NCBI GenBank assembly: GCA_024654525.1
Contig: JANLHI010000032.1
Span: forward strand, 172 to 64,171
Direction of reading: 5' to 3'
Source of the DNA: Patescibacteria group bacterium
Lineage (GTDB): Bacteria > Patescibacteriota > Minisyncoccia > UBA6257 > 2-01-FULL-56-20
Length of the DNA stretch: 64,000 bases
Under the pieces are notes generated by a model that was given only the letters and a program-made list of their open reading frames with translations, had not been told where the DNA came from and did no database searches. Positions 9,683-54,004 of the stretch are shown here, piece by piece. The translations under genes and the position numbers were made by a program. How positions within the stretch are numbered: the stretch's first letter is position 1; every line of letters starts with the position of its first letter.

Positions 9683-9886
9683 ATGGAAATATTCGCATTC
9701 ACGTTAGATGTTATCGGGAAGATTTTGATAGCATATACTGCACTTGCCGTTCATGGTCGCGTACGCACCGAGCAGAAAATTGATGCATCGGTATTCAAAG
9801 CGATGAGATGGGAAAAAGTAATCGGAATTTCCGGAATTATTTTTATAATTCTTGGATACCTTATTCATGTTTCGATAAGGTTTTAA
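9683..9886 (+). CDS. Possible small membrane protein.
   Basis: 67 aa with two hydrophobic segments. Lies immediately upstream of the zwf-gnd start. Weak call. Confidence 0.25.
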   Translation: MEIFAFTLDVIGKILIAYTALAVHGRVRTEQKIDASVFKAMRWEKVIGISGIIFIILGYLIHVSIRF

Positions 9887-9897
9887 GAATTAGAATA

Positions 9898-12285
9898 ATG
9901 GAAACACCTACATCAAAAATCAACACTCCCACTATCTTTGTCATCTTCGGTGTTACCGGAGATCTTGCGGCAAAGAAAATCATCCCTTCCCTGTGGCATC
10001 TTTTCCAACAAAAACGATTACCGGATAAACTTTCCATTATAGGATTTTCCCGTAAAGGGATGGGCAGTGCAGAATTCCATGCTTTATTACGAGAGATACT
10101 CTTGAAGCGTGGCGGAGAAAATACAGACGAAAAAAATATTACTGATTTCTTCAAATTTTTCACATATCACGCAGGAACATTTGAGGATGAAAAGGCGTTT
10201 CATACACTCTCTCAACGCATTGCGGAAACGGAACAGGCGTGGGGAGTATGTACTAATAAACTTTTTTATCTCGCAGTGCCACCCTCATCCTTTTCCCCTA
10301 TTCTTAAAAACCTTGCGACCGCGAAACTCAATATACCTTGTGGGGGAGACCTTGGATGGAGTCGCGTGCTTGTTGAGAAACCTTTCGGGGTAAATTTGCA
10401 AACCGCATCCGAGCTTCAAGCACTTCTCGCATTGTATTTCAAGGAAGAACAAATTTACCGTATAGACCATTACTTCTTCAAAGAAATCGTGCAGGGAATA
10501 AAAAACTTCCGTTTTTCCAATAATCTCTTCGAGAATATATGGGACAACACCACCATTGAACGTATTGATATTCGACTACTCGAATCCGTTGGCGTGGAGG
10601 AGCGCGGGAACTTTTACGATTCGGTGGGAACCCTTCGCGATGTAGGACAAAACCATATTCTTGCCATGCTTGCTGCACTCACTATGGAATATCCGGAAAA
10701 TGCAACCGCTCATTCCATCCAAAAAAGCCGTGCGAATGTTTTAGAATTCCTTGCGCCATGGACAGATACCACACTCCAACAAAACACATATCGCGCTCGC
10801 TATCACGGATATACCGATATTCAAGGAGTCGCCCCAAATTCGGAAGTTGAAACTTACTTTGCACTCGCCACTCACCTCCTTCACTCCCGATGGAAGGGAA
10901 TTCCTATATTTATGGAGGCCGGGAAACGCATGTCTGAAGCACGAAAGGAGATGATACTTACCCTCAAGCATCCAGAGAAATGTTTTCTTTGCGAAACCAC
11001 AAAATCACATGCACCAAACCGTATCGTGTTTCGTCTCGAACCAAACGATGAAATTGTAATTCATTTTTGGACAAAAAAACCCGGTTTCGAACAAATTCTT
11101 GAAGAACGCACATTTTCATTTTTCCTTTATGAGAAAAGGGTGAAGATGCAATATGTCGAGGAATATGCAAATATTCTCCACGCTACCATGGAAGGGAACC
11201 AGGCCTTCTTTATCTCACCCGATGAAATTACGGCATCATGGAAATTTACAGATCCGATTATTGATAACTGGAAAAAAAATATTGTGCCACTTATGGAGTA
11301 CGAGCCCGACACCACTCCCGAAGCGGAAAATCTTCGTGAAAAAAATAACACTGCACACAAAGAAGCGAAGGGGGTGATAGGAATCATTGGACTGGGAAAA
11401 ATGGGAGCAAACCTTGCACGACGACTCCATGAGAAGCAATGGGATGTCGTGGGATTCAATAGAACTTCAGACTCCACTAAAAACCTTGTACGCGAAGGGA
11501 TCATAGGCGCTTACTCGTTGCAAGAGTTTGTAAACGCATTGCCAAGTCCCCGCACAATATGGCTTATGGCTCCCCATCAAGTAGTAGACACAATACTTGC
11601 CAACCTTACTCCTCTACTCCAAGAAAGCGATGTGATACTGGATGGCGGAAATTCTCCCTATAAGAGCTCAATCCAACGAGAGAAAAATCTTTCCCAAAAA
11701 AATATTTCCTTTCTTGATGTCGGCGTCTCGGGAGGTCCCGAAGGAGCAAGAAACGGCGCGTGTCTTATGATAGGAGGTGAAAGAGCACTCTATGAGAAAT
11801 ACGAACCGCTCTTCAGAGATTTATCAGTCGAGAAAGGATACGGTTATATGGGAAAATCCGGTGCGGGACATTTTGTAAAAATGGTCCATAACGGTATTGA
11901 ATACGGCATGATGCAGGCAATCGGTGAAGGATTTGAGGTGATGAAAAAATCCCCGTTTTCTCTTAACCTTCACTCCATCGCAGAACTCTATAATCACGGT
12001 TCAGTAATCACTTCCCGCCTCGTACAATGGCTTGCCAACGCATATGAAAAATTCAGCGATGAATTGGATACTGATGAGTGTTGCTCGGGAAAAGTCTCTC
12101 ATAGCGGCGAGGGGCAATGGACCGTGGATGCCGCAAAAGAATTTGGTGTGCCGGTTGCCATCATCGAAGGCGCGCTTGAATTCAGGAAACAATCACAAGA
12201 GAATCCTTCCTATACCGGAAAAGTCGTATCGGCATTGCGCCATGAGTTTGGCGGGCACGATACGAGTGACACCACATCACACTAG
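9898..12285 (+). CDS. zwf-gnd: Fusion of glucose-6-phosphate 1-dehydrogenase (N-terminal, about 480 aa) with a short-form 6-phosphogluconate dehydrogenase (C-terminal, about 300 aa, YqeC/GndL type).
   Basis: N-terminal part: IFGVTGDLAAKKIIPSLWHL (NADP site), EKPFG, YRIDHYFFKE, QNHILAMLAALTME. C-terminal part from about 11371: IGIIGLGKMGANLARRL Rossmann fold, DVGVSGGPEGARNGACLMIGG, GKSGAGHFVKMVHNGIEYGMMQAIGEG. Single uninterrupted frame. ATG at 9898 (METPTSK). Confidence 0.85.
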   Translation: METPTSKINTPTIFVIFGVTGDLAAKKIIPSLWHLFQQKRLPDKLSIIGFSRKGMGSAEFHALLREILLKRGGENTDEKNITDFFKFFTYHAGTFEDEKAFHTLSQRIAETEQAWGVCTNKLFYLAVPPSSFSPILKNLATAKLNIPCGGDLGWSRVLVEKPFGVNLQTASELQALLALYFKEEQIYRIDHYFFKEIVQGIKNFRFSNNLFENIWDNTTIERIDIRLLESVGVEERGNFYDSVGTLRDVGQNHILAMLAALTMEYPENATAHSIQKSRANVLEFLAPWTDTTLQQNTYRARYHGYTDIQGVAPNSEVETYFALATHLLHSRWKGIPIFMEAGKRMSEARKEMILTLKHPEKCFLCETTKSHAPNRIVFRLEPNDEIVIHFWTKKPGFEQILEERTFSFFLYEKRVKMQYVEEYANILHATMEGNQAFFISPDEITASWKFTDPIIDNWKKNIVPLMEYEPDTTPEAENLREKNNTAHKEAKGVIGIIGLGKMGANLARRLHEKQWDVVGFNRTSDSTKNLVREGIIGAYSLQEFVNALPSPRTIWLMAPHQVVDTILANLTPLLQESDVILDGGNSPYKSSIQREKNLSQKNISFLDVGVSGGPEGARNGACLMIGGERALYEKYEPLFRDLSVEKGYGYMGKSGAGHFVKMVHNGIEYGMMQAIGEGFEVMKKSPFSLNLHSIAELYNHGSVITSRLVQWLANAYEKFSDELDTDECCSGKVSHSGEGQWTVDAAKEFGVPVAIIEGALEFRKQSQENPSYTGKVVSALRHEFGGHDTSDTTSH

Positions 12286-13141: not shown

Positions 13142-13408
13142 ATGAAAGGGTTTGTATATATCCTAGAATCTCTGCATGATAAAAGATTTTATATTGGAAG
13201 TACCTCTAATCTTTCGGAAAGAGTAAAACATCATCAAGGTGGGTTTACTCCAAGTACTCACAGAATGGGAGAAATCGCGCTTGTATTTTCCCAAGAATTC
13301 CCTACGCTTGAAGAAGCTCTTAAAATAGAGCAGAAACTTAAGCGTTTAAAAAGACGAGATTATATTGAGAAAATAATCCGAGAAGGAAAGATTAAAATGC
13401 GCGCTTAG
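13142..13408 (+). CDS. GIY-YIG nuclease-family small protein.
   Basis: 88 aa. GFVYILESLHDKRFYIGSTSNLSERVKHH matches GIY-YIG. Its stop (TAG 13406-13408) overlaps the 5' end of tRNA-Val. Confidence 0.7.
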   Translation: MKGFVYILESLHDKRFYIGSTSNLSERVKHHQGGFTPSTHRMGEIALVFSQEFPTLEEALKIEQKLKRLKRRDYIEKIIREGKIKMRA

Positions 13409-13470
13409 CTCAGTGGTAGAGCGACTCGTTTACACCGAGTAGGCCGGGGGTTCGATCCCCTCAGCGCGCA
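13399..13470 (+). tRNA. tRNA-Val (anticodon TAC), CCA not encoded.
   Basis: Acceptor gcgcgct/agcgcgc, D-arm tagctcagtggtagagc, anticodon stem actcg/cgagt with loop TTTACAC, T-arm ggggg-ttcgatc-ccctc. Confidence 0.85.
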
Positions 13471-13471
13471 C

Positions 13472-21704: not shown

Positions 21705-21725
21705 AACTCAAGGGGCTAAAAAGGG

Positions 21726-21799
21726 GTGGGTCAGGAAGGACTCGAACCTTCGATCGCCAAGGTATAAGCTTGGTGCTTTAGCCACTAAGCTACTGACCC
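21726..21799 (-). tRNA. tRNA-Ile with anticodon TAT (UAU), CCA not encoded.
   Basis: The reverse complement GGGTCAGtaGCTTagtggctaAAGCaCCAAGcTTATAcCTTGGcgatcGAAGGttcgagtCCTTCCTGACCCa folds with a 7-bp acceptor. Anticodon loop CTTATAC. Confidence 0.75.
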
Positions 21800-21804
21800 A
21801 TATC

Positions 21805-28828: not shown

Positions 28829-29194
28829 CTATCCAATATTTTCATAGTGAGTTATTTTAGGACCCTCTCCATCATCTACAACCGTCACTGCGACGAGATC
28901 TATTTGCCATCCCTCCCCCACCAGATCATCCCACTCGTTAGCAAATGCAGTACAAATCCTCCTTAATATACGAGTTTTCCTTGCGGTAACATTATCCTCC
29001 GGAGAGAGAGCTCCCAACCGCATGGTCTTTACCTCCACAAAAACAAGGGGGCCTTTCTTTTTCTTGGCAATAATATCTATTTCCCCATACGGCTTTAAAT
29101 AATTCCTCTCAATAATCGAATATCCCTTTCCTTTAAGAAAATTTACTGCAATCTCTTCTCCCAACTTTCCTATTTCCCCACCTTTCATACCCAT
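28829..29194 (-). CDS. YraN/UPF0102-family putative endonuclease.
   Basis: 121 aa. [21 protein letters not shown]...[10 protein letters not shown]...LVFVEVKT is the YraN signature. Confidence 0.75.
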
Positions 29195-29250
29195 ATAATA
29201 TCATTATTGCCGAAAATTTTTGTAATATGAATTAGATTTAAATTTCTTTC

Positions 29251-29719
29251 TGACAAACATTTTTGTTTGTCAGAAAACAATAAAATCAGATAAACACACT
29301 TTGCATAATAAAAACATGGCTTAAAATCGATTTCCTAAAAAACTCGATAAAACCATTGTTTGTCGACAAACAATTGATACATCATAATCACACTTTTTTA
29401 TTTCCAAATGTTTGTCGACAAACACCAAAATAACCCTGATTCCTATTCAGCAATAGTAAATTGTTTAGCGACAAACATTATAGAAAGAAAAGAGCGAGAT
29501 AATTAAATTGCACTTAATCTTGTATGGGTATTCTGGAGTACCTTGGATATAAACCCTTCTAAAAAATCACACGGATGTTTGTCGACAAACATCTCAAATA
29601 TATCTCGATACCCCATAACAATGTTTGTCGACAAACATTGTCCATATAATGTTTCGCGACAAACACTTTATCCACAGAAAAATTAAAATATCTACTCTGA
29701 CAAACACTTTTGTTTGTCA
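29251..29719. repeat. Array of eight 16-18 bp palindromic operator-like sites with half-site TGTTTGTC(A).
   Basis: Convergent perfect copies TGTTTGTCGACAAACA at 29357-29372, 29409-29424, 29576-29591 and 29622-29637. Degenerate copies at 29462-29477 (tgtttagcgacaaaca) and 29650-29665 (tgtttcgcgacaaaca). Divergent copies TGACAAACA-N4-TGTTTGTCA at 29251-29272 and 29698-29719. TTATCCACA at 29668-29676. Confidence 0.85.
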
Positions 29720-29946
29720 AAAGTTGATTAACTACTATTTATTCATGCGCGAATCGGCAATTTTCATTGCCGATTTAATTGCCTATTTTATTTTCATTTT
29801 CTCTTTAAAATTACCGCTTTTTTGTAGAGGTATGATGTGGTGTGAAAATTTTTAATCGGGTGTTTTCTTGTGGGTAGGTGAGGGGGGCTAAATACTACGG
29901 GATTATTATTTCTTGCAACATCACCATGCGATGCTATCCTAATACA

Positions 29947-30279
29947 ATGGATATAAAAAAAAATGGCGTCTACCAGGGTATTCTTGAAGAACAAAAAAAG
30001 AAATTACTTGAGAAAATTGCGTCTCACAATAAGCCAGAAGATTTTGGAAGCGATGTCGATGGACTTGATGAAGAATCCGACGAAGCAGAAGAGCAGGGGA
30101 ATAGTCTTGCGATTGCACAATCGCTCAAAGAAAACGTCAGCGAAATTGATAGCGCTCTCGAAAAAATTAAAACTGGAAAATATGGAATGTGCTCAACATG
30201 TAACAATCCTGTAGAGGAAGAAGTTCTTGATATAGCACCCGAGTCGGCATTATGCCGCGCGTGTAAGAAAACTTTTTAA
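29947..30279 (+). CDS. DksA/TraR-family C4-type zinc-finger protein.
   Basis: 111 aa from ATG 29947. C-terminal CSTC-N17-CRAC four-cysteine finger preceded by an acidic coiled-coil. The listed ORF begins at GTG 29878. Confidence 0.7.
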   Translation: MDIKKNGVYQGILEEQKKKLLEKIASHNKPEDFGSDVDGLDEESDEAEEQGNSLAIAQSLKENVSEIDSALEKIKTGKYGMCSTCNNPVEEEVLDIAPESALCRACKKTF

Positions 30280-30304: not shown

Positions 30305-31831
30305 ATGCATGAGCATCTTGCAAGAGTGCATTCCGCCGAGCTTGAAGGAATCCACGCGAGACCTATTGAAGTTGAAGTAGATTTAAATGTTGGTCTTCAT
30401 TCTTTTAATATTGTCGGCCTCGCAGATAAAGCCCTTAACGAAGCGCGTGAGCGGGTAAATTCATCTCTAAAAAATTCAGGAGTAAAACCCCCTAACCGCG
30501 AGAATCGGCGGATCACCGTAAACCTCGCTCCCGCCGATGTGAAAAAAACCGGAGCTCAATATGATCTCGCGATTGCGATCGGATATCTTGCCGCTACACA
30601 TCAAATAAAAAAATTTGATGCGAGCGATAAAATTTTTATAGGAGAACTTGCTCTGGATGGACGTCTTCGTCCTGTTCATGGAGCGCTCAATATCAGTCAC
30701 ATGGCGGCTCGTGCAGGTTTCCGATATCTCTTTCTCCCTGCACAAAATGCAAATGAAGCGGCAGCGGTTTGTGATGTCCATGTTGTTCCACTCGAAAATC
30801 TTGGCGATGCAATTTCATATCTCGAGCGCGAAAATTCAGAAATTCCTCGCCGGGAATATCATGCGCAACACGCCCCTTCAAAATCTATTTCTGATTTTGC
30901 AGAAATACACGGACAGGAAAATGCAAAACGCGCCCTCATCATTGCCGCAGCAGGAGGACATAATCTTTTAATGAGTGGGCCCCCCGGAGTAGGGAAGAGC
31001 ATGCTCGCAAATACCATGGTGGGAATCCTTCCTCCGATGGATATACACGAGTCGATTGAAGTGACAAAAATTTGGAGCGCTGCAGGGATAGCGGTACAAG
31101 GACTTCTTACCACGCGTCCGTTTCGATCTCCTCACCAAACCGCAACACTCCCCGCGATTATAGGAGGAGGAAGCGACCCAAAGCCAGGAGAAATAAGTTT
31201 GGCGCATCACGGAGTATTATTCCTTGACGAACTTCCAGAATTTCAACGTCATATTCTTGAGTCACTCCGTGCTCCGATGGAATCGGGCGCAGTACACGTT
31301 TCTCGCGCACGAGGATCTCTTACTTTTCCAGCCCAATTCACGCTCGTTGCCGCAATGAACCCTTGCCCATGCGGATATTACGGTGACTCGGAAAAAGAAT
31401 GTAAATGTTCTCCATTCGAAGTGATAAAATATCAGAAAAAAATTTCCGGTCCTCTTGCCGATCGCATTGACCTTCACGTGTCGGTTCCTCGTGTTTCCGT
31501 TGCAACACTCCGATCCGCCGACAACTCCTCTCTCTCAAGTGCTGATGCGCGAAATCTTGTTATGTCCGCTCGTGCACATCAGCAAGAACGTTTTGTAAAA
31601 CTCTCCATTACCACCAATGCGGAAATGGGAACGAAGCAAGTCGAATCCATGGTTGCCACCGACTCTGACGCGGAAGAATTCCTTCGTACTCTTGAACGTA
31701 CACAACTTTCTCCTCGAGGATATTATCGCCTTCTTAAAACCGCGCGTACCATCGCTGATATGGAACATTCGGAAAAAGTTTCCTCGCCTCATCTTGCAGA
31801 AGCATGGGGATATCGTATTCGAGAAACATAA
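30305..31831 (+). CDS. comM: YifB/ComM-family Mg-chelatase-like AAA+ ATPase.
   Basis: 508 aa. N-terminal Lon-protease-like domain, Walker A GPPGVGKS, Walker B VLFLDELPEF, C-terminal ChlI-like domain. Confidence 0.9.
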   Translation: MHEHLARVHSAELEGIHARPIEVEVDLNVGLHSFNIVGLADKALNEARERVNSSLKNSGVKPPNRENRRITVNLAPADVKKTGAQYDLAIAIGYLAATHQIKKFDASDKIFIGELALDGRLRPVHGALNISHMAARAGFRYLFLPAQNANEAAAVCDVHVVPLENLGDAISYLERENSEIPRREYHAQHAPSKSISDFAEIHGQENAKRALIIAAAGGHNLLMSGPPGVGKSMLANTMVGILPPMDIHESIEVTKIWSAAGIAVQGLLTTRPFRSPHQTATLPAIIGGGSDPKPGEISLAHHGVLFLDELPEFQRHILESLRAPMESGAVHVSRARGSLTFPAQFTLVAAMNPCPCGYYGDSEKECKCSPFEVIKYQKKISGPLADRIDLHVSVPRVSVATLRSADNSSLSSADARNLVMSARAHQQERFVKLSITTNAEMGTKQVESMVATDSDAEEFLRTLERTQLSPRGYYRLLKTARTIADMEHSEKVSSPHLAEAWGYRIRET

Positions 31832-32957: not shown

Positions 32958-34763
32958 ATGGATCACCTCCTTAATCCGCAACAAGAAAAGGCCGCTCATG
33001 CTCCTCAAAAACCCCTCCTTATTGTCGCGGGAGCAGGAACCGGAAAAACAAAGACTCTTACAAGCCGTTTTATTCATCTTGTAGCGCAAGGAATTCATCC
33101 GTCTCATATCTGTGCGTTGACTTTTACCAATAAAGCGGCAAAAGAAATGGGGGGAAGAGTACACCGCGCCGTCACCGGAGGAATATCCGTCCGCGACGCC
33201 TTCATTGGTACATTTCACTCGTTTGGAGCCCGAATTCTTCGTGCTGAAGCCGCAACATTAGAAAGAACACCTCACTTTACTATCTTCGATGATCACGATT
33301 CCCTCGGTGCAATCAAAAAAGTATTGAAAGAACTCGATATTAAAAATGGCACGCCATCTCAATTCCTTCGATTTATATCTTTCGAAAAAAGCGGCGTGGC
33401 ACAAGGCATGCGCACCGGGACTTATGAAGATAGAGCAGTGTTTAAAAATTATGAATTATTCCTCACACGCGCAAACGCTTTTGATTTTGACGATTTAATC
33501 GTAAAAATGGTTTGGCTTTTCAGAAACAATCCCTCTGTCCTCGAAAAATATCAAAATAAATACACTCACATTCTCGTGGACGAATACCAGGATGTAAGTC
33601 CCATGCAATACGCTCTTATTCAATGCCTTGCCGCGCGCCACAGAAATATAAGCGTCGTAGGAGATGATGCACAAATGATTTATGGGTGGCGCTATGCTAG
33701 TCTTGATACTTTTCTGAACTTTGAAAAAGATTGGCCGAACGCCCAAGTGATACTTCTTGAGGAGAATTATCGCTCGACCGGAACCATTATTCACGCTTCA
33801 TCTGCGGTGATTGCGAACAATCAGCGTGCGCGCGAGAAAAGTTTGTGGACAAATAATATGGACGGCTCACTCATTCTTATTGCAGAAACCGCCAGTGAAG
33901 ATGATGAGGCGGAATGGATTGCGGATCACATCGACTCGAAGTCGAATAATCCCGAAACAATGGGTAATTCATGCGCCATTCTCTATCGAACAAACGCTCA
34001 ATCCCGCGCACTTGAACAAGCGCTCGTACGAAGAGGAATCCCATATCGTATTTATGGAGGACTTAAATTCTATGAACGCCGAGAAATAAAAAATATTATT
34101 GCAGCACTTCGCCTCGCACTAAATCCTCGCGACGAGATAAGTTACGATCGTCTTCAGAAAACATTTCGCATCCGCGCGTTTCGCACGATGCTTCCCTCTA
34201 TTCTCGCGCTTGCTGACACCACTCCCGCCGAAGCAATAAAATCGTTTCTTGATGTGACTCACTACTTTGAATATTTAGAACGTGAAACCATAAATGCCGA
34301 CGAGCGACAGGAAAATATTCGAGAGCTCTTGCAGTTCGCTACGCAATTTTCCACACTCTCAGAATTTCTTGAGCATGTTGCACTGGTACAAGCAACGGAC
34401 AACGCTTCAAGCGACACTAGCCGCACCACAGAGCAGGGAAAGGACACTCCTCCTCCCGTACACCTTTCCACCGTACACCTTGCCAAAGGATTGGAATTTG
34501 ACGAAGTTTTCCTTGCGGGATGCACCGAAGGGATGTTGCCTCATATGAGATCAATGGATTCGCAGGATGAGATAGAAGAAGAAAGACGACTTATGTATGT
34601 GGCAATGACGCGCGCACGACGTGAACTTGCAATCTCGTTCTATGGACTTCCTTCACGTTTTATTGGAGAAATTCCCAATGACCTTATCATGTTTTTCCGC
34701 ACCTCAAATACGGATAAGTTCAGCGACGCTGAAGAACGGAATATTCAACTCGAAGACATTTAA
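32958..34763 (+). CDS. UvrD/PcrA-family ATP-dependent DNA helicase.
   Basis: 601 aa. Walker A AGAGTGKTKTLT, motif II VDEYQD, QNYRS, C-terminal VHLAKGLEFD and YVAMTRAR. Confidence 0.88.
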   Translation: MDHLLNPQQEKAAHAPQKPLLIVAGAGTGKTKTLTSRFIHLVAQGIHPSHICALTFTNKAAKEMGGRVHRAVTGGISVRDAFIGTFHSFGARILRAEAATLERTPHFTIFDDHDSLGAIKKVLKELDIKNGTPSQFLRFISFEKSGVAQGMRTGTYEDRAVFKNYELFLTRANAFDFDDLIVKMVWLFRNNPSVLEKYQNKYTHILVDEYQDVSPMQYALIQCLAARHRNISVVGDDAQMIYGWRYASLDTFLNFEKDWPNAQVILLEENYRSTGTIIHASSAVIANNQRAREKSLWTNNMDGSLILIAETASEDDEAEWIADHIDSKSNNPETMGNSCAILYRTNAQSRALEQALVRRGIPYRIYGGLKFYERREIKNIIAALRLALNPRDEISYDRLQKTFRIRAFRTMLPSILALADTTPAEAIKSFLDVTHYFEYLERETINADERQENIRELLQFATQFSTLSEFLEHVALVQATDNASSDTSRTTEQGKDTPPPVHLSTVHLAKGLEFDEVFLAGCTEGMLPHMRSMDSQDEIEEERRLMYVAMTRARRELAISFYGLPSRFIGEIPNDLIMFFRTSNTDKFSDAEERNIQLEDI

Positions 34764-52237: not shown

Positions 52238-52504
52238 AGCATCATTCTACACATATTTTCTATAAACACAACATTTTTAACCTCCTTGCGCAACTCATTA
52301 TGCACAGAAAATCCCCAAACCTATTCCTTTATTTTTTGACTCGCGGAGATTTCTTCATACAATTAACTCATTGGTTTCTTTTCTTTCTCTATTTTTATTA
52401 TGCGCTTCGGTAAAAAATTAATTCCTATGTTTGAGGGTGCGCCGATTGCTCTTAGTAAAATCCACTATCCTTTGTCGAGGATACGTTTTTAACCTTTTAA
52501 CAAA

Positions 52505-53863
52505 ATGAACCTCGAAGAGTTATGGCAGTCAACGCTTGCTGAAATGGAAGTACAGCTTTCGAGGGCTAATTTTTCTACGTGGCTCAAGAACAGTCACCTT
52601 GTAAATAAACAGGATGGAACTTTTTTTATCGCCCTCCCGAATAATTTTGCAAAAGAATGGGTAGAAAATAAATACAATAAAAATCTCCTTGGTATTTTGA
52701 GAAATTTTGACGCTTCTGCACGGAAATTGGAATTTGTTGTGGCCTCTCAAAATGTTATAGCACCTTTACGTAAAGAATCTTCATCCACACAATCTCCTCA
52801 AGCGGAAAATCAAATGCGCCTCGAACTTAAAATAGATCCGGAAACAAATCTTAATCCCCGATATACCCTGTCTTCTTTTGTAGTGGGACCCTCAAACGAA
52901 CTGGCGTTCGCGGCGGCATCAGCAATTATCAATGATGTTGGGTCAAAATATAATCCCTTCTTCATATACGGAGGAGTGGGACTCGGAAAGACTCATCTTA
53001 TACAAGCGATTGGCAACGAAGTAAAAGCGAAGTATCAAGGGAAAATACGACCGAAATATGTTCCTTCCGAACGTTTTACAAGCGATGTGGTGTGGGCTAT
53101 TAGAAATAAGAGAATGGAAGATATAAAGAAAAAATACAGAGATGTGGATCTCTTAATTATTGATGATATTCAATTTATAGGGGGAAAGGAAAAAACGGAA
53201 GAGGAGTTTTTTCATACATTTAACACTCTTTATGAAAATAATAAACAAATCATTATCTCATCGGATAGGCCTCCTCAATCAATTCCAACGCTGGAAGAGC
53301 GTCTTCGCTCTCGGTTCGAAGGAGGCCTTATTACCGACGTAAGTTATCCGGAATACGAAATGCGCGTGGCTATTATTAAAACCAAGCTTCAGGAATTAAA
53401 TCAAAGCCTCCCCGCAAACGTTATTGATGTTATTGCAAAGCGTATGAAGAAAAATATTCGCGAACTTGAAGGAACTCTTAATAAAATTCTTTTCTATCAA
53501 GAACGAAAGCAAACACAAATAACCGAGAGTGTGGCGGAGGATATTATTGAAAAATCATCTCAAAACCTTTCTCGTCGCGTTACCGACGCACAAGTCCTTA
53601 AAGCGGTTGCGGAGTTTTTTAATATCAATACTGCCGATCTTCTAAGTCATAATAGAAGGAAAGAAGTTGTGGAGCCACGTCAAATCGTGATGTTTCTTCT
53701 TCGGGATATGTTGGAGTTATCCTACCCCTCTATTGGGGAAAAGATGGGGAAAGATCACACCACCGCAATCCATGCTTATGAAAAAATCAGCAGGGATGTG
53801 AATAAGTATGCCGCTCTTAACCAGAAAATCCTCATGATACGCGACATGATATACAAGGGATAA
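52505..53863 (+). CDS. dnaA: Chromosomal replication initiator protein DnaA.
   Basis: 452 aa. Walker A GGVGLGKTHL, LLIDDIQF, sensor motifs, C-terminal DNA-binding helix LSYPSIGEKMGKDHTTAIHAYEKI. Confidence 0.95.
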   Translation: MNLEELWQSTLAEMEVQLSRANFSTWLKNSHLVNKQDGTFFIALPNNFAKEWVENKYNKNLLGILRNFDASARKLEFVVASQNVIAPLRKESSSTQSPQAENQMRLELKIDPETNLNPRYTLSSFVVGPSNELAFAAASAIINDVGSKYNPFFIYGGVGLGKTHLIQAIGNEVKAKYQGKIRPKYVPSERFTSDVVWAIRNKRMEDIKKKYRDVDLLIIDDIQFIGGKEKTEEEFFHTFNTLYENNKQIIISSDRPPQSIPTLEERLRSRFEGGLITDVSYPEYEMRVAIIKTKLQELNQSLPANVIDVIAKRMKKNIRELEGTLNKILFYQERKQTQITESVAEDIIEKSSQNLSRRVTDAQVLKAVAEFFNINTADLLSHNRRKEVVEPRQIVMFLLRDMLELSYPSIGEKMGKDHTTAIHAYEKISRDVNKYAALNQKILMIRDMIYKG

Positions 53864-54004
53864 TCCACATGTATTCCAATTCTCTAATTCATTTTAAGCC
53901 TTATATAACATGCGTTTCTGGATTTATCCACATACCCACACCCTCTAATAACAGTAGTAACAACAATAATAAATATTAATTAATATAGAATTCTTATTAT
54001 TACT
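53861..54004. promoter_or_regulatory. Candidate oriC segment between dnaA and dnaN, with DnaA boxes and an AT-rich unwinding element.
   Basis: Perfect TTATCCACA at 53924-53932. One-mismatch tAATCCACA at 53861-53869. Pure AT run aataataaatattaattaatatagaattcttattattact at about 53960-54003. An additional TTATgCACA lies at 52297-52305 upstream of dnaA. Confidence 0.5.

Follow-up and report, generated by a model that had tools for sequence, protein, structure and literature searches.

A locus-restricted array of palindromic sites between yraN and dksA-comM in a Patescibacteria genome, tentatively read as an operator cluster

Introduction

Patescibacteria, or candidate phyla radiation (CPR), have tiny genomes in which very few regulators are known and hardly any cis-elements have been characterised, and a heavy dependence on DNA uptake is presumed for them. 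Here, we describe an array of palindromic sites in a 64,000-nt stretch of DNA from a Patescibacteria group bacterium (contig JANLHI010000032.1 of assembly GCA_024654525.1, positions 172 to 64,171 of the forward strand), which is referred to as the window and to which all coordinates given without a locus number belong. The array (29251-29719) lies between yraN and a DksA/TraR-like zinc-finger gene that is followed by comM, and it combines six convergent TGTTTNNCGNNAAACA palindromes with two everted copies of the form TGACAAACA-N4-TGTTTGTCA. A common site grammar is found at this locus in about 20 related loci, and the cluster is far from random and not ordinary.

Several described systems resemble this arrangement in part. 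Operators of the CRP/FNR type follow a 5-6-5 layout (TGTGA-N6-TCACA, including the CRP-S sites of competence regulons to which comM belongs), in which the pentamers are likewise one helical turn apart. The CRP consensus shares the AATGT...ACATT outer bases with the array sites, and, as with these operators, several sites are found per region in the divergent promoter region of transformation genes. The array differs in its TGTTT instead of TGTGA, in the density of eight sites within 470 bp, in the additional everted form and in the restriction of the motif to one locus. Plasmid arrays read by ribbon-helix-helix (RHH) proteins, such as those of omega of pSM19035 and ParR-parC of R1, similarly reiterate their units 7-10 times in both orientations within one non-coding region, and as in these cases the array could combine regulation with the assembly of a complex. 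However, the RHH-read arrays are contiguous heptads or 11-mers located beside par genes, whereas the present units are 16-bp dyads with spacers of 12-98 bp and no par genes.

The sites recognized in the parS/ParB, KorB-OB and Noc-NBS systems are also 16-bp palindromes with TGTTT...AAACA arms, a central CG and an origin-proximal location, and mobile-element parS sites occur in tandem arrays with a spacing of 23-45 bp. In contrast to parS, the array exhibits free inner dinucleotides, conserved everted copies, dispensable exact copies and covarying flanks. Targets of I-CreI-type LAGLIDADG endonucleases are 22-bp pseudo-palindromes with an uncontacted central 4 bp, to which the conserved outer arms and variable centre of the array sites are comparable, but the array sites are multi-copy, show two arm orientations and coexist intact with an endonuclease gene. 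Finally, repetitive extragenic palindromes (REP), bacterial interspersed mosaic elements (BIME) and repeats resembling miniature inverted-repeat transposable elements (MITE) are likewise short, AT-rich extragenic palindromes that are found in both orientations and show signs of local copying. Unlike these, the array elements are not dispersed and keep a syntenic position across deep divergence.

The genes on either side of the array have been linked functionally. YraN is reported to be a single-stranded DNA (ssDNA) endonuclease whose evolution is coupled to that of the ComM helicase, its binding partner, with both proteins being required for D-loop resolution in natural transformation (bioRxiv 10.1101/2024.02.06.579203). 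The array therefore sits between the two halves of one functional pair, and a deeply conserved non-coding element is confined to exactly this position.

Architecture of the array

The array occupies the largest intergenic gap of the window (29195-29946), which is AT-rich. The recount agrees with the six convergent and two divergent copies that an initial annotation of the sequence had placed at 29251-29719: four of the six palindromes are exact copies of TGTTTGTCGACAAACA, starting at 29357, 29409, 29576 and 29622, and the other two carry two substitutions each (TGTTTAGCGACAAACA at 29462 and TGTTTCGCGACAAACA at 29650). The individual elements, from left to right, are as follows.

29247-29276: left everted element E1, core TGACAAACA-tttt-TGTTTGTCA at 29251-29272
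29264-29279: convergent palindrome with one mismatch, TGTTTGTCAGAAAACA, overlapping the right arm of E1; a ninth palindrome-type copy
29355-29374: palindrome P1, 20-bp perfect palindrome with the exact core at 29357-29372
29409-29424: palindrome P2, exact 16-mer
29462-29477: palindrome P3, variant TGTTTAGCGACAAACA
29574-29593: palindrome P4, 20-bp perfect palindrome with the exact core at 29576-29591
29618-29641: palindrome P5, 24-bp perfect palindrome with the exact core at 29622-29637
29650-29665: palindrome P6, variant TGTTTCGCGACAAACA
29668-29676, plus strand: perfect DnaA box TTATCCACA (GAAAA), one of only two perfect boxes in the window
29696-29722: right everted element E2, core TGACAAACA-cttt-TGTTTGTCA at 29698-29719

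Three copies, P1, P4 and P5, thus extend into longer perfect palindromes of 20, 20 and 24 bp, where only two extended versions of 20-22 bp had been annotated. The start-to-start distances of the palindromes are 52, 53, 114, 46 and 28 bp; the irregularity of the spacing was noted correctly, but the figures given for it (52, 52, 113, 46 and 27 bp) were not reproduced. The everted copies at 29251-29272 and 29698-29719 form 27-nt direct repeats that are 93% alike, and the perfect DnaA box was found inside the array where it had been annotated. The sites of the window are weakly phased on the helix (p about 0.025), and distances of 43-47 bp and 74-76 bp are seen repeatedly across loci.

When up to three mismatches to the palindrome were allowed, eight matches were obtained in the window against 0.34 expected, a number that was reached in none of 100 shuffles. 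The 8-bp half-site TGTTTGTC is found 15 times in the 64 kb (2.1 expected), and 14 of these 15 copies fall within 29252-29718. The sole other window match with at most three mismatches, AGTTTGTGGACAAATA at 33840-33855, is located inside uvrD and probably arose by chance.

A CRISPR array or one of the TIGR (tandem interspaced guide RNA) kind, as defined in PMC12045711, was ruled out by the irregular spacing together with the lack of Cas or Tas (Nop-domain) genes in Pfam scans, in line with the initial annotation, which had described the array as not CRISPR-like.

Conservation in related genomes

The flanking genes had been named as yraN, a DksA/TraR zinc-finger gene and comM, and all three assignments were borne out by Pfam scans and homologues.

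28829-29194, minus strand: yraN (UPF0102, PD-(D/E)xK nuclease; Pfam PF02021, E=1.3e-20), transcription directed away from the array
29947-30279, plus strand: DksA/TraR-like C4 zinc-finger protein, 110 aa from the MDIKK start (Pfam PF01258, E=0.006, under the curated cutoff)
30305-31831, plus strand: comM, Mg-chelatase-like AAA+ helicase (Pfam ChlI, Mg_chelatase and Mg_chelatase_C, E=3e-91)

PF01258 was found in two homologues of the DksA-like protein, P0003 and P0004, and NCBI protein NUV53_04570 has the same sequence as the 110-aa product in the window. Relatives were gathered in three ways, by following DksA-like homologues, by scanning GTDB genomes for ComM and by scanning metagenomes with the DksA-like alignment; their loci are cited below by number (L001 and so on). 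About 20 loci with a DksA-like protein of at least 45% identity show a common site grammar, in which an everted GNNAAACA-N4-TGTTTNNC is located 213-300 bp upstream of the dksA-like start codon and is preceded by one to four convergent TGTTTNNCGNNAAACA palindromes. A frequent composite layout in these relatives, with half-site orientations drawn as arrowheads and spacers in brackets, is > < (4) < (4) >. The positions TGTTT, central CG and AAACA (TGTTT..CG..AAACA) are invariant across loci, while the inner dinucleotides vary between loci and often within one (GT, TA, AG, CG, TC, GC and GG).

Exact-pattern elements are confined to this locus: 46 of them were counted in 24.2 kb of the corresponding upstream DNA, as opposed to none in the remaining 248.6 kb of sequence from 24 genomes. 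Consequently, the array is not a dispersed repeat, and its restriction to one locus is as predicted for a dedicated local regulator. A MITE-like family, the outcome that would have spoken against a special role of the locus, was likewise ruled out, since a single three-mismatch match was found elsewhere in the window and no copy in the 249 kb elsewhere. Scans of viral contigs yielded only isolated, chance-level singletons and no arrays (eight matches to the exact 16-mer and four to the everted 22-mer), and blastn against plasmids and phages returned no similarity.

Among the non-coding sequence, conservation is highest in the everted element, which shares 29 of 30 nt between genomes with a ComM identity of only about 75%. 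E1 of the window shows this degree of identity (96.7% over 30 nt, 29/30) with the everted element of L018. E2 corresponds in position to the one everted element of the relatives, which is located 213-300 bp upstream of the dksA-like gene. A comparison of the orthologous regions, as suggested in the initial annotation, showed that they carry the motif, with the six-copy array itself being specific to this genome. In loci that lack the endonuclease gene described below, a palindrome is located 6-45 bp upstream of the yraN ATG; in the window, the distance from E1 to this codon is 63 nt.

More distant clades that possess dksA-comM without an adjacent yraN carry no elements. In L017, L020 and L040, the block composed of yraN, the endonuclease gene F5 (see below) and the elements is inverted relative to dksA-comM, and in L197 this block exists without dksA-comM. 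The inverted blocks and L197 indicate that the elements belong with yraN and F5 and not strictly with the dksA promoter.

Two further observations concern individual relatives. The yraN coding sequence of L016 (4278-4293) and L021 (2747-2762) contains an exact-pattern palindrome, TGTTTGCCGACAAACA, whose translation is part of FVGKH; it may be a chance occurrence or a further site. In addition, a conserved block of the form AGG(T/A)TTTAyGGGCTTATCGGGTT directly follows the everted element in many relatives, among them L001 (105-130), L023, L027, L038 and L194 (10537-10560), and it has no clear counterpart in the window.

A second motif near the promoters

A second motif, TTGCCG(G/A)AT / CCGGCAA (B motif), recurs in relatives in the interval from the everted element to the dksA-like gene, for example at L194:10578-10740 and, in L023, at -170 to -60 from the dksA-like start codon. 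As many as 6-7 direct repeats of CCGGCAA are found at distances of about 11-13 bp, together with hairpin-forming inverted pairs. In the window, it is represented by two features.

29206-29213, plus strand: B motif ATTGCCGA, 12 nt from the yraN start and overlapping the -10/spacer region of a predicted minus-strand promoter
29752-29775: inverted pair of B motifs, aaTCGGCAAT-tttc-ATTGCCGAtt, followed by TTGCCT (29779-29784)

The second of these contains the hairpin tcggcaat-tttc-attgccga of the initial annotation, which was located at 29754-29773. Equivalent hairpins with compensating changes are present in L017 and L020. The copy of the B motif nearest to the gene resembles a -35 element, which would belong to a putative dksA promoter close to the start codon. 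As to transcription termination, two weak AT-rich candidates were the only intrinsic terminators predicted.

Alternation with a LAGLIDADG endonuclease gene

Three features go beyond the initial annotation, namely the pairing of a nuclease and a helicase by yraN and comM, an alternation with a LAGLIDADG gene, and covariation across the dyad in the flanks of the sites. The last two are unusual.

In 11 of about 24 loci, an open reading frame (ORF) of about 145 aa, termed F5, is located between yraN and the elements. It is present in the closest relatives of the window, L003 (4818-5264) and L004 (4835-5272), which belong to Ca. Liptonbacteria and whose ComM is 75% identical. F5 consists of a single LAGLIDADG_1 domain, homologous to the individual domains of meganucleases of the I-OnuI and I-AniI type. 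More than 560 homologues were found, and those with a source name (about 10) all come from Patescibacteria; the gene adjoins yraN in every fetched locus, and of 120 homologues, about 93% retain the catalytic GEG motif. On the ComM tree, loci with and without F5 are intermingled, pointing to repeated gain or loss, and no F5 gene or remnant was detected in F5-negative loci, including the interval 29195-29946 of the window. The palindrome array of the window fills the slot that is held by the F5 gene in many relatives.

Exact convergent palindromes are present in all six complete F5-negative loci but in only one of ten F5-positive loci (Fisher p=8.7e-4). The latter carry a near-perfect palindrome between yraN and F5, with its right arm abutting the F5 start codon, a further site 6-50 bp past the F5 stop codon and an intact everted element. 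Sites retained around F5 often show substitutions in the centre or in an arm, and perfect convergent palindromes lie 6 bp from the F5 stop codon in L073 and L040. An insertion of F5 at the centre of the everted element was considered and dropped, as the half-site at the F5 start is the right arm of a convergent palindrome.

Symmetry of the sites

Symmetry often extends beyond the 16-bp core. Four or more additional perfect pairs are found in 7 of 27 sites (0.8% under the null) and nine or more in 4 of 27 (0.08%), and the longest palindrome, in L027, measures 44 bp. In an ungapped alignment of the 27 sites, the dyad covariation score was 0.268, compared to 0.130 +/- 0.016 in shuffles, none of 500 of which reached the observed value, and to 0.08-0.15 in slid controls. 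Flank pairs vary on both sides of the dyad, even though the flanks differ from copy to copy. The imperfect copies show no G.U bias, so wobble pairs are not favoured, and Rfam searches returned only tRNAs at gathering thresholds and chance matches to miRNA-like hairpins at permissive thresholds. The symmetry is therefore a property of the DNA and not of an RNA; a known structured RNA was ruled out by the Rfam result and the mismatch spectrum.

The variable core is usually uniform within a locus, even where it is asymmetric (TACGGA three times in L023), and differs between loci, which points to local copying or homogenisation.

Relationship to parS and to the replication origin

The initial annotation had compared the arms of the palindrome with those of chromosomal parS and had offered a ParB-like loading array as a candidate function. 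The similarity is closer than stated there, as 12 of the 16 positions, all of them invariant, equal the parS consensus (TGTTTCACGTGAAACA), but membership in the parS family was not supported. One site of L001 is one base per half-site off parS, one relative has TGTTTTACGTAAAACA, and L027 contains GTTTAGCGCTAAAC, which is close to the consensus operator of KorB. The inner bases read by ParB (TGTTnCACGTGAAACA) remain unmatched: positions 6, 7, 10 and 11 are GT/AC here, and positions 6-7 and 10-11 reportedly, in work of Jalal and colleagues from 2020, include bases that discriminate parS from Noc sites. No canonical parS was found in the origin-proximal 64 kb, no ParA or ParB in the window or in any fetched locus, and nothing relevant came up in literature searches on the motif string or on ParB in CPR. 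When viral contigs were scanned for close pairs of the generic pattern, 337 of 347 sites among the matches listed were canonical parS, which means that tandem parS arrays exist and that the pattern is normally diagnostic of parS. As a side observation, well above 100 IMG/VR contigs at the least (L074-L193) carry tandem arrays of 2-4 canonical TGTTTCACGTGAAACA sites, 23-45 bp apart (for example L082:2833-2938 and L136:5982-6075), many of them from sample 3300045988.

The origin lies about 23 kb from the array, as deduced from the position of dnaA (52505-53863) and the adjacent dnaN, both after rnpA-yidC, and from the minimum of the cumulative GC skew at 52-54 kb. The GC skew keeps its sign across the array, which holds a single DnaA box, and on these two grounds the array is not oriC. 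The sequence TTATCCACAGAA is also found upstream of the dksA-like gene in L003. The likely oriC flanks dnaA: a DnaA-box-like TTATGCACAGAAAA is located upstream of the gene at 52296-52309, and the dnaA-dnaN interval (53861-53932) contains TAATCCACA and a perfect TTATCCACA, followed by an AT-rich stretch. The GAAAA extension of this box is the same as that of the box inside the array.

Interpretation

The reading we favour, held tentatively and with somewhat less than even confidence, is that the array is a locus-specific cluster of protein-binding sites that controls yraN, along with F5 where present, and probably dksA-comM, and that has been expanded in this genome. A dense operator cluster had been among the functions proposed initially, and it is the best supported of them in view of the divergent control region, the yraN-proximal palindromes and the conservation restricted to the locus. 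In the unit, two TGTTT pentamers form a dyad and are set one helical turn from each other (TGTTT-N6-AAACA, with CG at the centre and A/T flanks), which matches the geometry of dimeric helix-turn-helix regulators, and the everted AAACA-N4-TGTTT represents a second arrangement of the same half-site. The sites lie in the shared control region of the divergent yraN and dksA-like-comM units and, in relatives, flank the start of F5; dyad sites adjoin the predicted core promoters at the yraN ATG (6-45 bp in relatives) and at the F5 start codon. Several sites may be occupied cooperatively, by which the transcription of yraN would be repressed or otherwise set from an operator at its promoter, while the dksA-comM operon could be controlled from a distance by the same occupancy. 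In the window, an expanded set of six plus two copies takes the slot filled by the endonuclease gene in sister genomes. Binding by a protein, a regulatory effect and cooperativity are what we infer here, and co-regulation is plausible because YraN and ComM form a co-evolving, interacting pair needed for transformation. If the array is a yraN-comM control region, it could serve as DNA bait for the first competence or recombination regulator of the lineage.

Two proteins encoded at the locus were considered as binders and set aside. YraN is unlikely to bind in a sequence-specific manner, as it is a reported ssDNA endonuclease of relaxed specificity, and the family of the DksA-like protein binds RNA polymerase, not DNA; moreover, clades with dksA-comM but without yraN lack the array. 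Pfam scans of the 64-kb window revealed neither ParA or ParB nor a recognisable transcription factor. The motif is not known to match a LexA/SOS box.

Several observations weigh against control by a local operator. A regulator gene was found neither in the window nor as a conserved neighbour of the array among the loci. The number of exact palindromes per locus ranges from zero to six, and there are sister genomes without any. In L017, L020, L040 and L197, the sites remain with yraN and F5 and are situated between convergent gene ends or apart from dksA-comM, so that they are not simply a dksA-comM operator. The likely dksA promoter is separated from the everted element upstream of it by more than 200 bp. 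A single dimer geometry would be unable to read both the convergent and the everted arrangement. Finally, the covariation of the flanks and the uniform, asymmetric cores would not be selected by a transcription factor or dimeric regulator alone; both features point to additional hairpin or cruciform behaviour or to local copy-and-homogenise processes.

The alternation with F5 raises the possibility, which we regard as unlikely, that the palindromes are recognition sites, homing sites or footprints of the endonuclease, with the window representing an endonuclease-free allele whose intact sites were copied or homogenised through cleavage and templated repair. Enzymes of the I-CreI type act as homodimers on a palindromic target of about 22 bp, and F5, being a single-domain protein, would be expected to do the same. 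This explanation accounts for the patchy presence of F5 at one locus without remnants in F5-negative loci, the retention of the GEG motif in about 93% of homologues, the concentration of exact palindromes in F5-negative loci (6/6 versus 1/10), the bracketing of the ORF by sites at its ATG and 6-50 bp past its stop codon, the shape of both element types as palindromes of 20-24 bp with a variable central 4-6 bp, and the homogenised cores with symmetry reaching into the flanks. It fits poorly with the perfect everted elements beside F5 in all F5-positive loci and the perfect palindromes of L073 and L040, with the usual occurrence of homing sites as single sites in conserved genes rather than as multi-copy arrays in endonuclease-free genomes, and with the inability of one homodimer to read both orientations. 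Moreover, the sites of the window are perfect without F5 or a remnant of it despite long divergence from the F5-positive sisters, implying a constraint that is independent of F5. The symmetry data also allow for palindromes that act as hairpin or cruciform DNA, extruded in the negatively supercoiled, AT-rich DNA between divergent promoters or in ssDNA, where the folded form might be read by a protein or might be a largely neutral, self-perfecting by-product of template switching around an old core. Symmetry past the core, up to 44 bp in L027, and covariation across the dyad with changes in both flanks and no preference for wobble pairs agree with this explanation. Nevertheless, many copies show no extension, TGTTT/AAACA and the central CG are so strictly conserved across deep divergence that sequence-specific selection beyond structure is required, and no HUH transposase, integrase or relaxase was found nearby in Pfam scans, which leaves it very unlikely. 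Alternatively, the palindromes may not be ordinary operators but a locus-bound family of hairpin-forming sequences that copy and homogenise themselves inside a single intergenic region and are mechanistically tied to F5 and/or the YraN-ComM D-loop machinery; here, cleavage at the dyad centre or processing of a cruciform, followed by templated repair, would yield perfect palindromes with covarying flanks. This is a doubtful proposition as well, slightly less so than hairpin formation alone; if true, it would describe a new "two-allele" system of endonuclease and palindromes in the natural-transformation locus of CPR.

Comparably doubtful is a parS-like centromere that has diverged, or an array near the origin that loads a CTP clamp of the ParB/KorB/Noc type, serving chromosome segregation, SMC loading or long-range silencing. 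The 12 invariant consensus positions, the closeness of sites in L001 and L027, the distance of about 23 kb to dnaA-dnaN and the GC-skew minimum, the lack of canonical parS in the origin-proximal 64 kb and the close tandem arrays of the generic pattern in viral contigs are in agreement with it. However, positions 6-7 and 10-11 are free to differ from locus to locus and inside an array, nine of the ten F5-carrying loci have no convergent palindrome of the exact pattern, the constant element is everted and does not have parS geometry, and neither ParA nor ParB is encoded in the window or the fetched loci. A relaxed parS or nuclease-linked palindromes would extend knowledge of centromere specificity or of selfish endonuclease biology, respectively. 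Least probable by far, to the point of being scarcely credible, is a replication origin or a DnaA-titrating or DnaA-reactivating locus: the region is the largest AT-rich intergenic region between divergent genes, it contains one perfect DnaA box, and the similar TTATCCACAGAA recurs in L003, yet this box is single and the repeated motif is unlike it, and the skew does not change sign at the array but reaches its minimum at 52-54 kb, together with rnpA-yidC, dnaA, dnaN, DnaA boxes and an AT-rich stretch.

Other features of the window

To the left of the array, all on the minus strand, are clpP, an H+-pyrophosphatase gene, nusA and yraN. To the right, the DksA/TraR-like gene and comM are followed by a LysM/M23 peptidase gene, uvrD, ksgA and a cluster resembling type IV secretion systems (T4SS). 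Between 29947 and 50628, most genes are on the plus strand (dksA-like, comM, uvrD, ksgA and the T4SS-like cluster with PrgI, VirB4/TraG-like and T4SS-pilin genes), and the GC skew places them on the replichore where their orientation is head-on to replication.

A tRNA-Ile with the anticodon UAU is predicted at 21724-21800 on the minus strand; bacteria usually decode AUA by a lysidine-modified CAU tRNA, and tRNA-Ile UAU is uncommon. At 9808-12285, one 825-aa ORF is a fusion of glucose-6-phosphate dehydrogenase (G6PD_N and G6PD_C) and 6-phosphogluconate dehydrogenase (NAD_binding_2 and 6PGD) domains. Finally, an 88-aa ORF with a GIY-YIG nuclease domain (13142-13408) has its end inside or next to tRNA-Val (13399-13471) and may be another homing-endonuclease-like gene.

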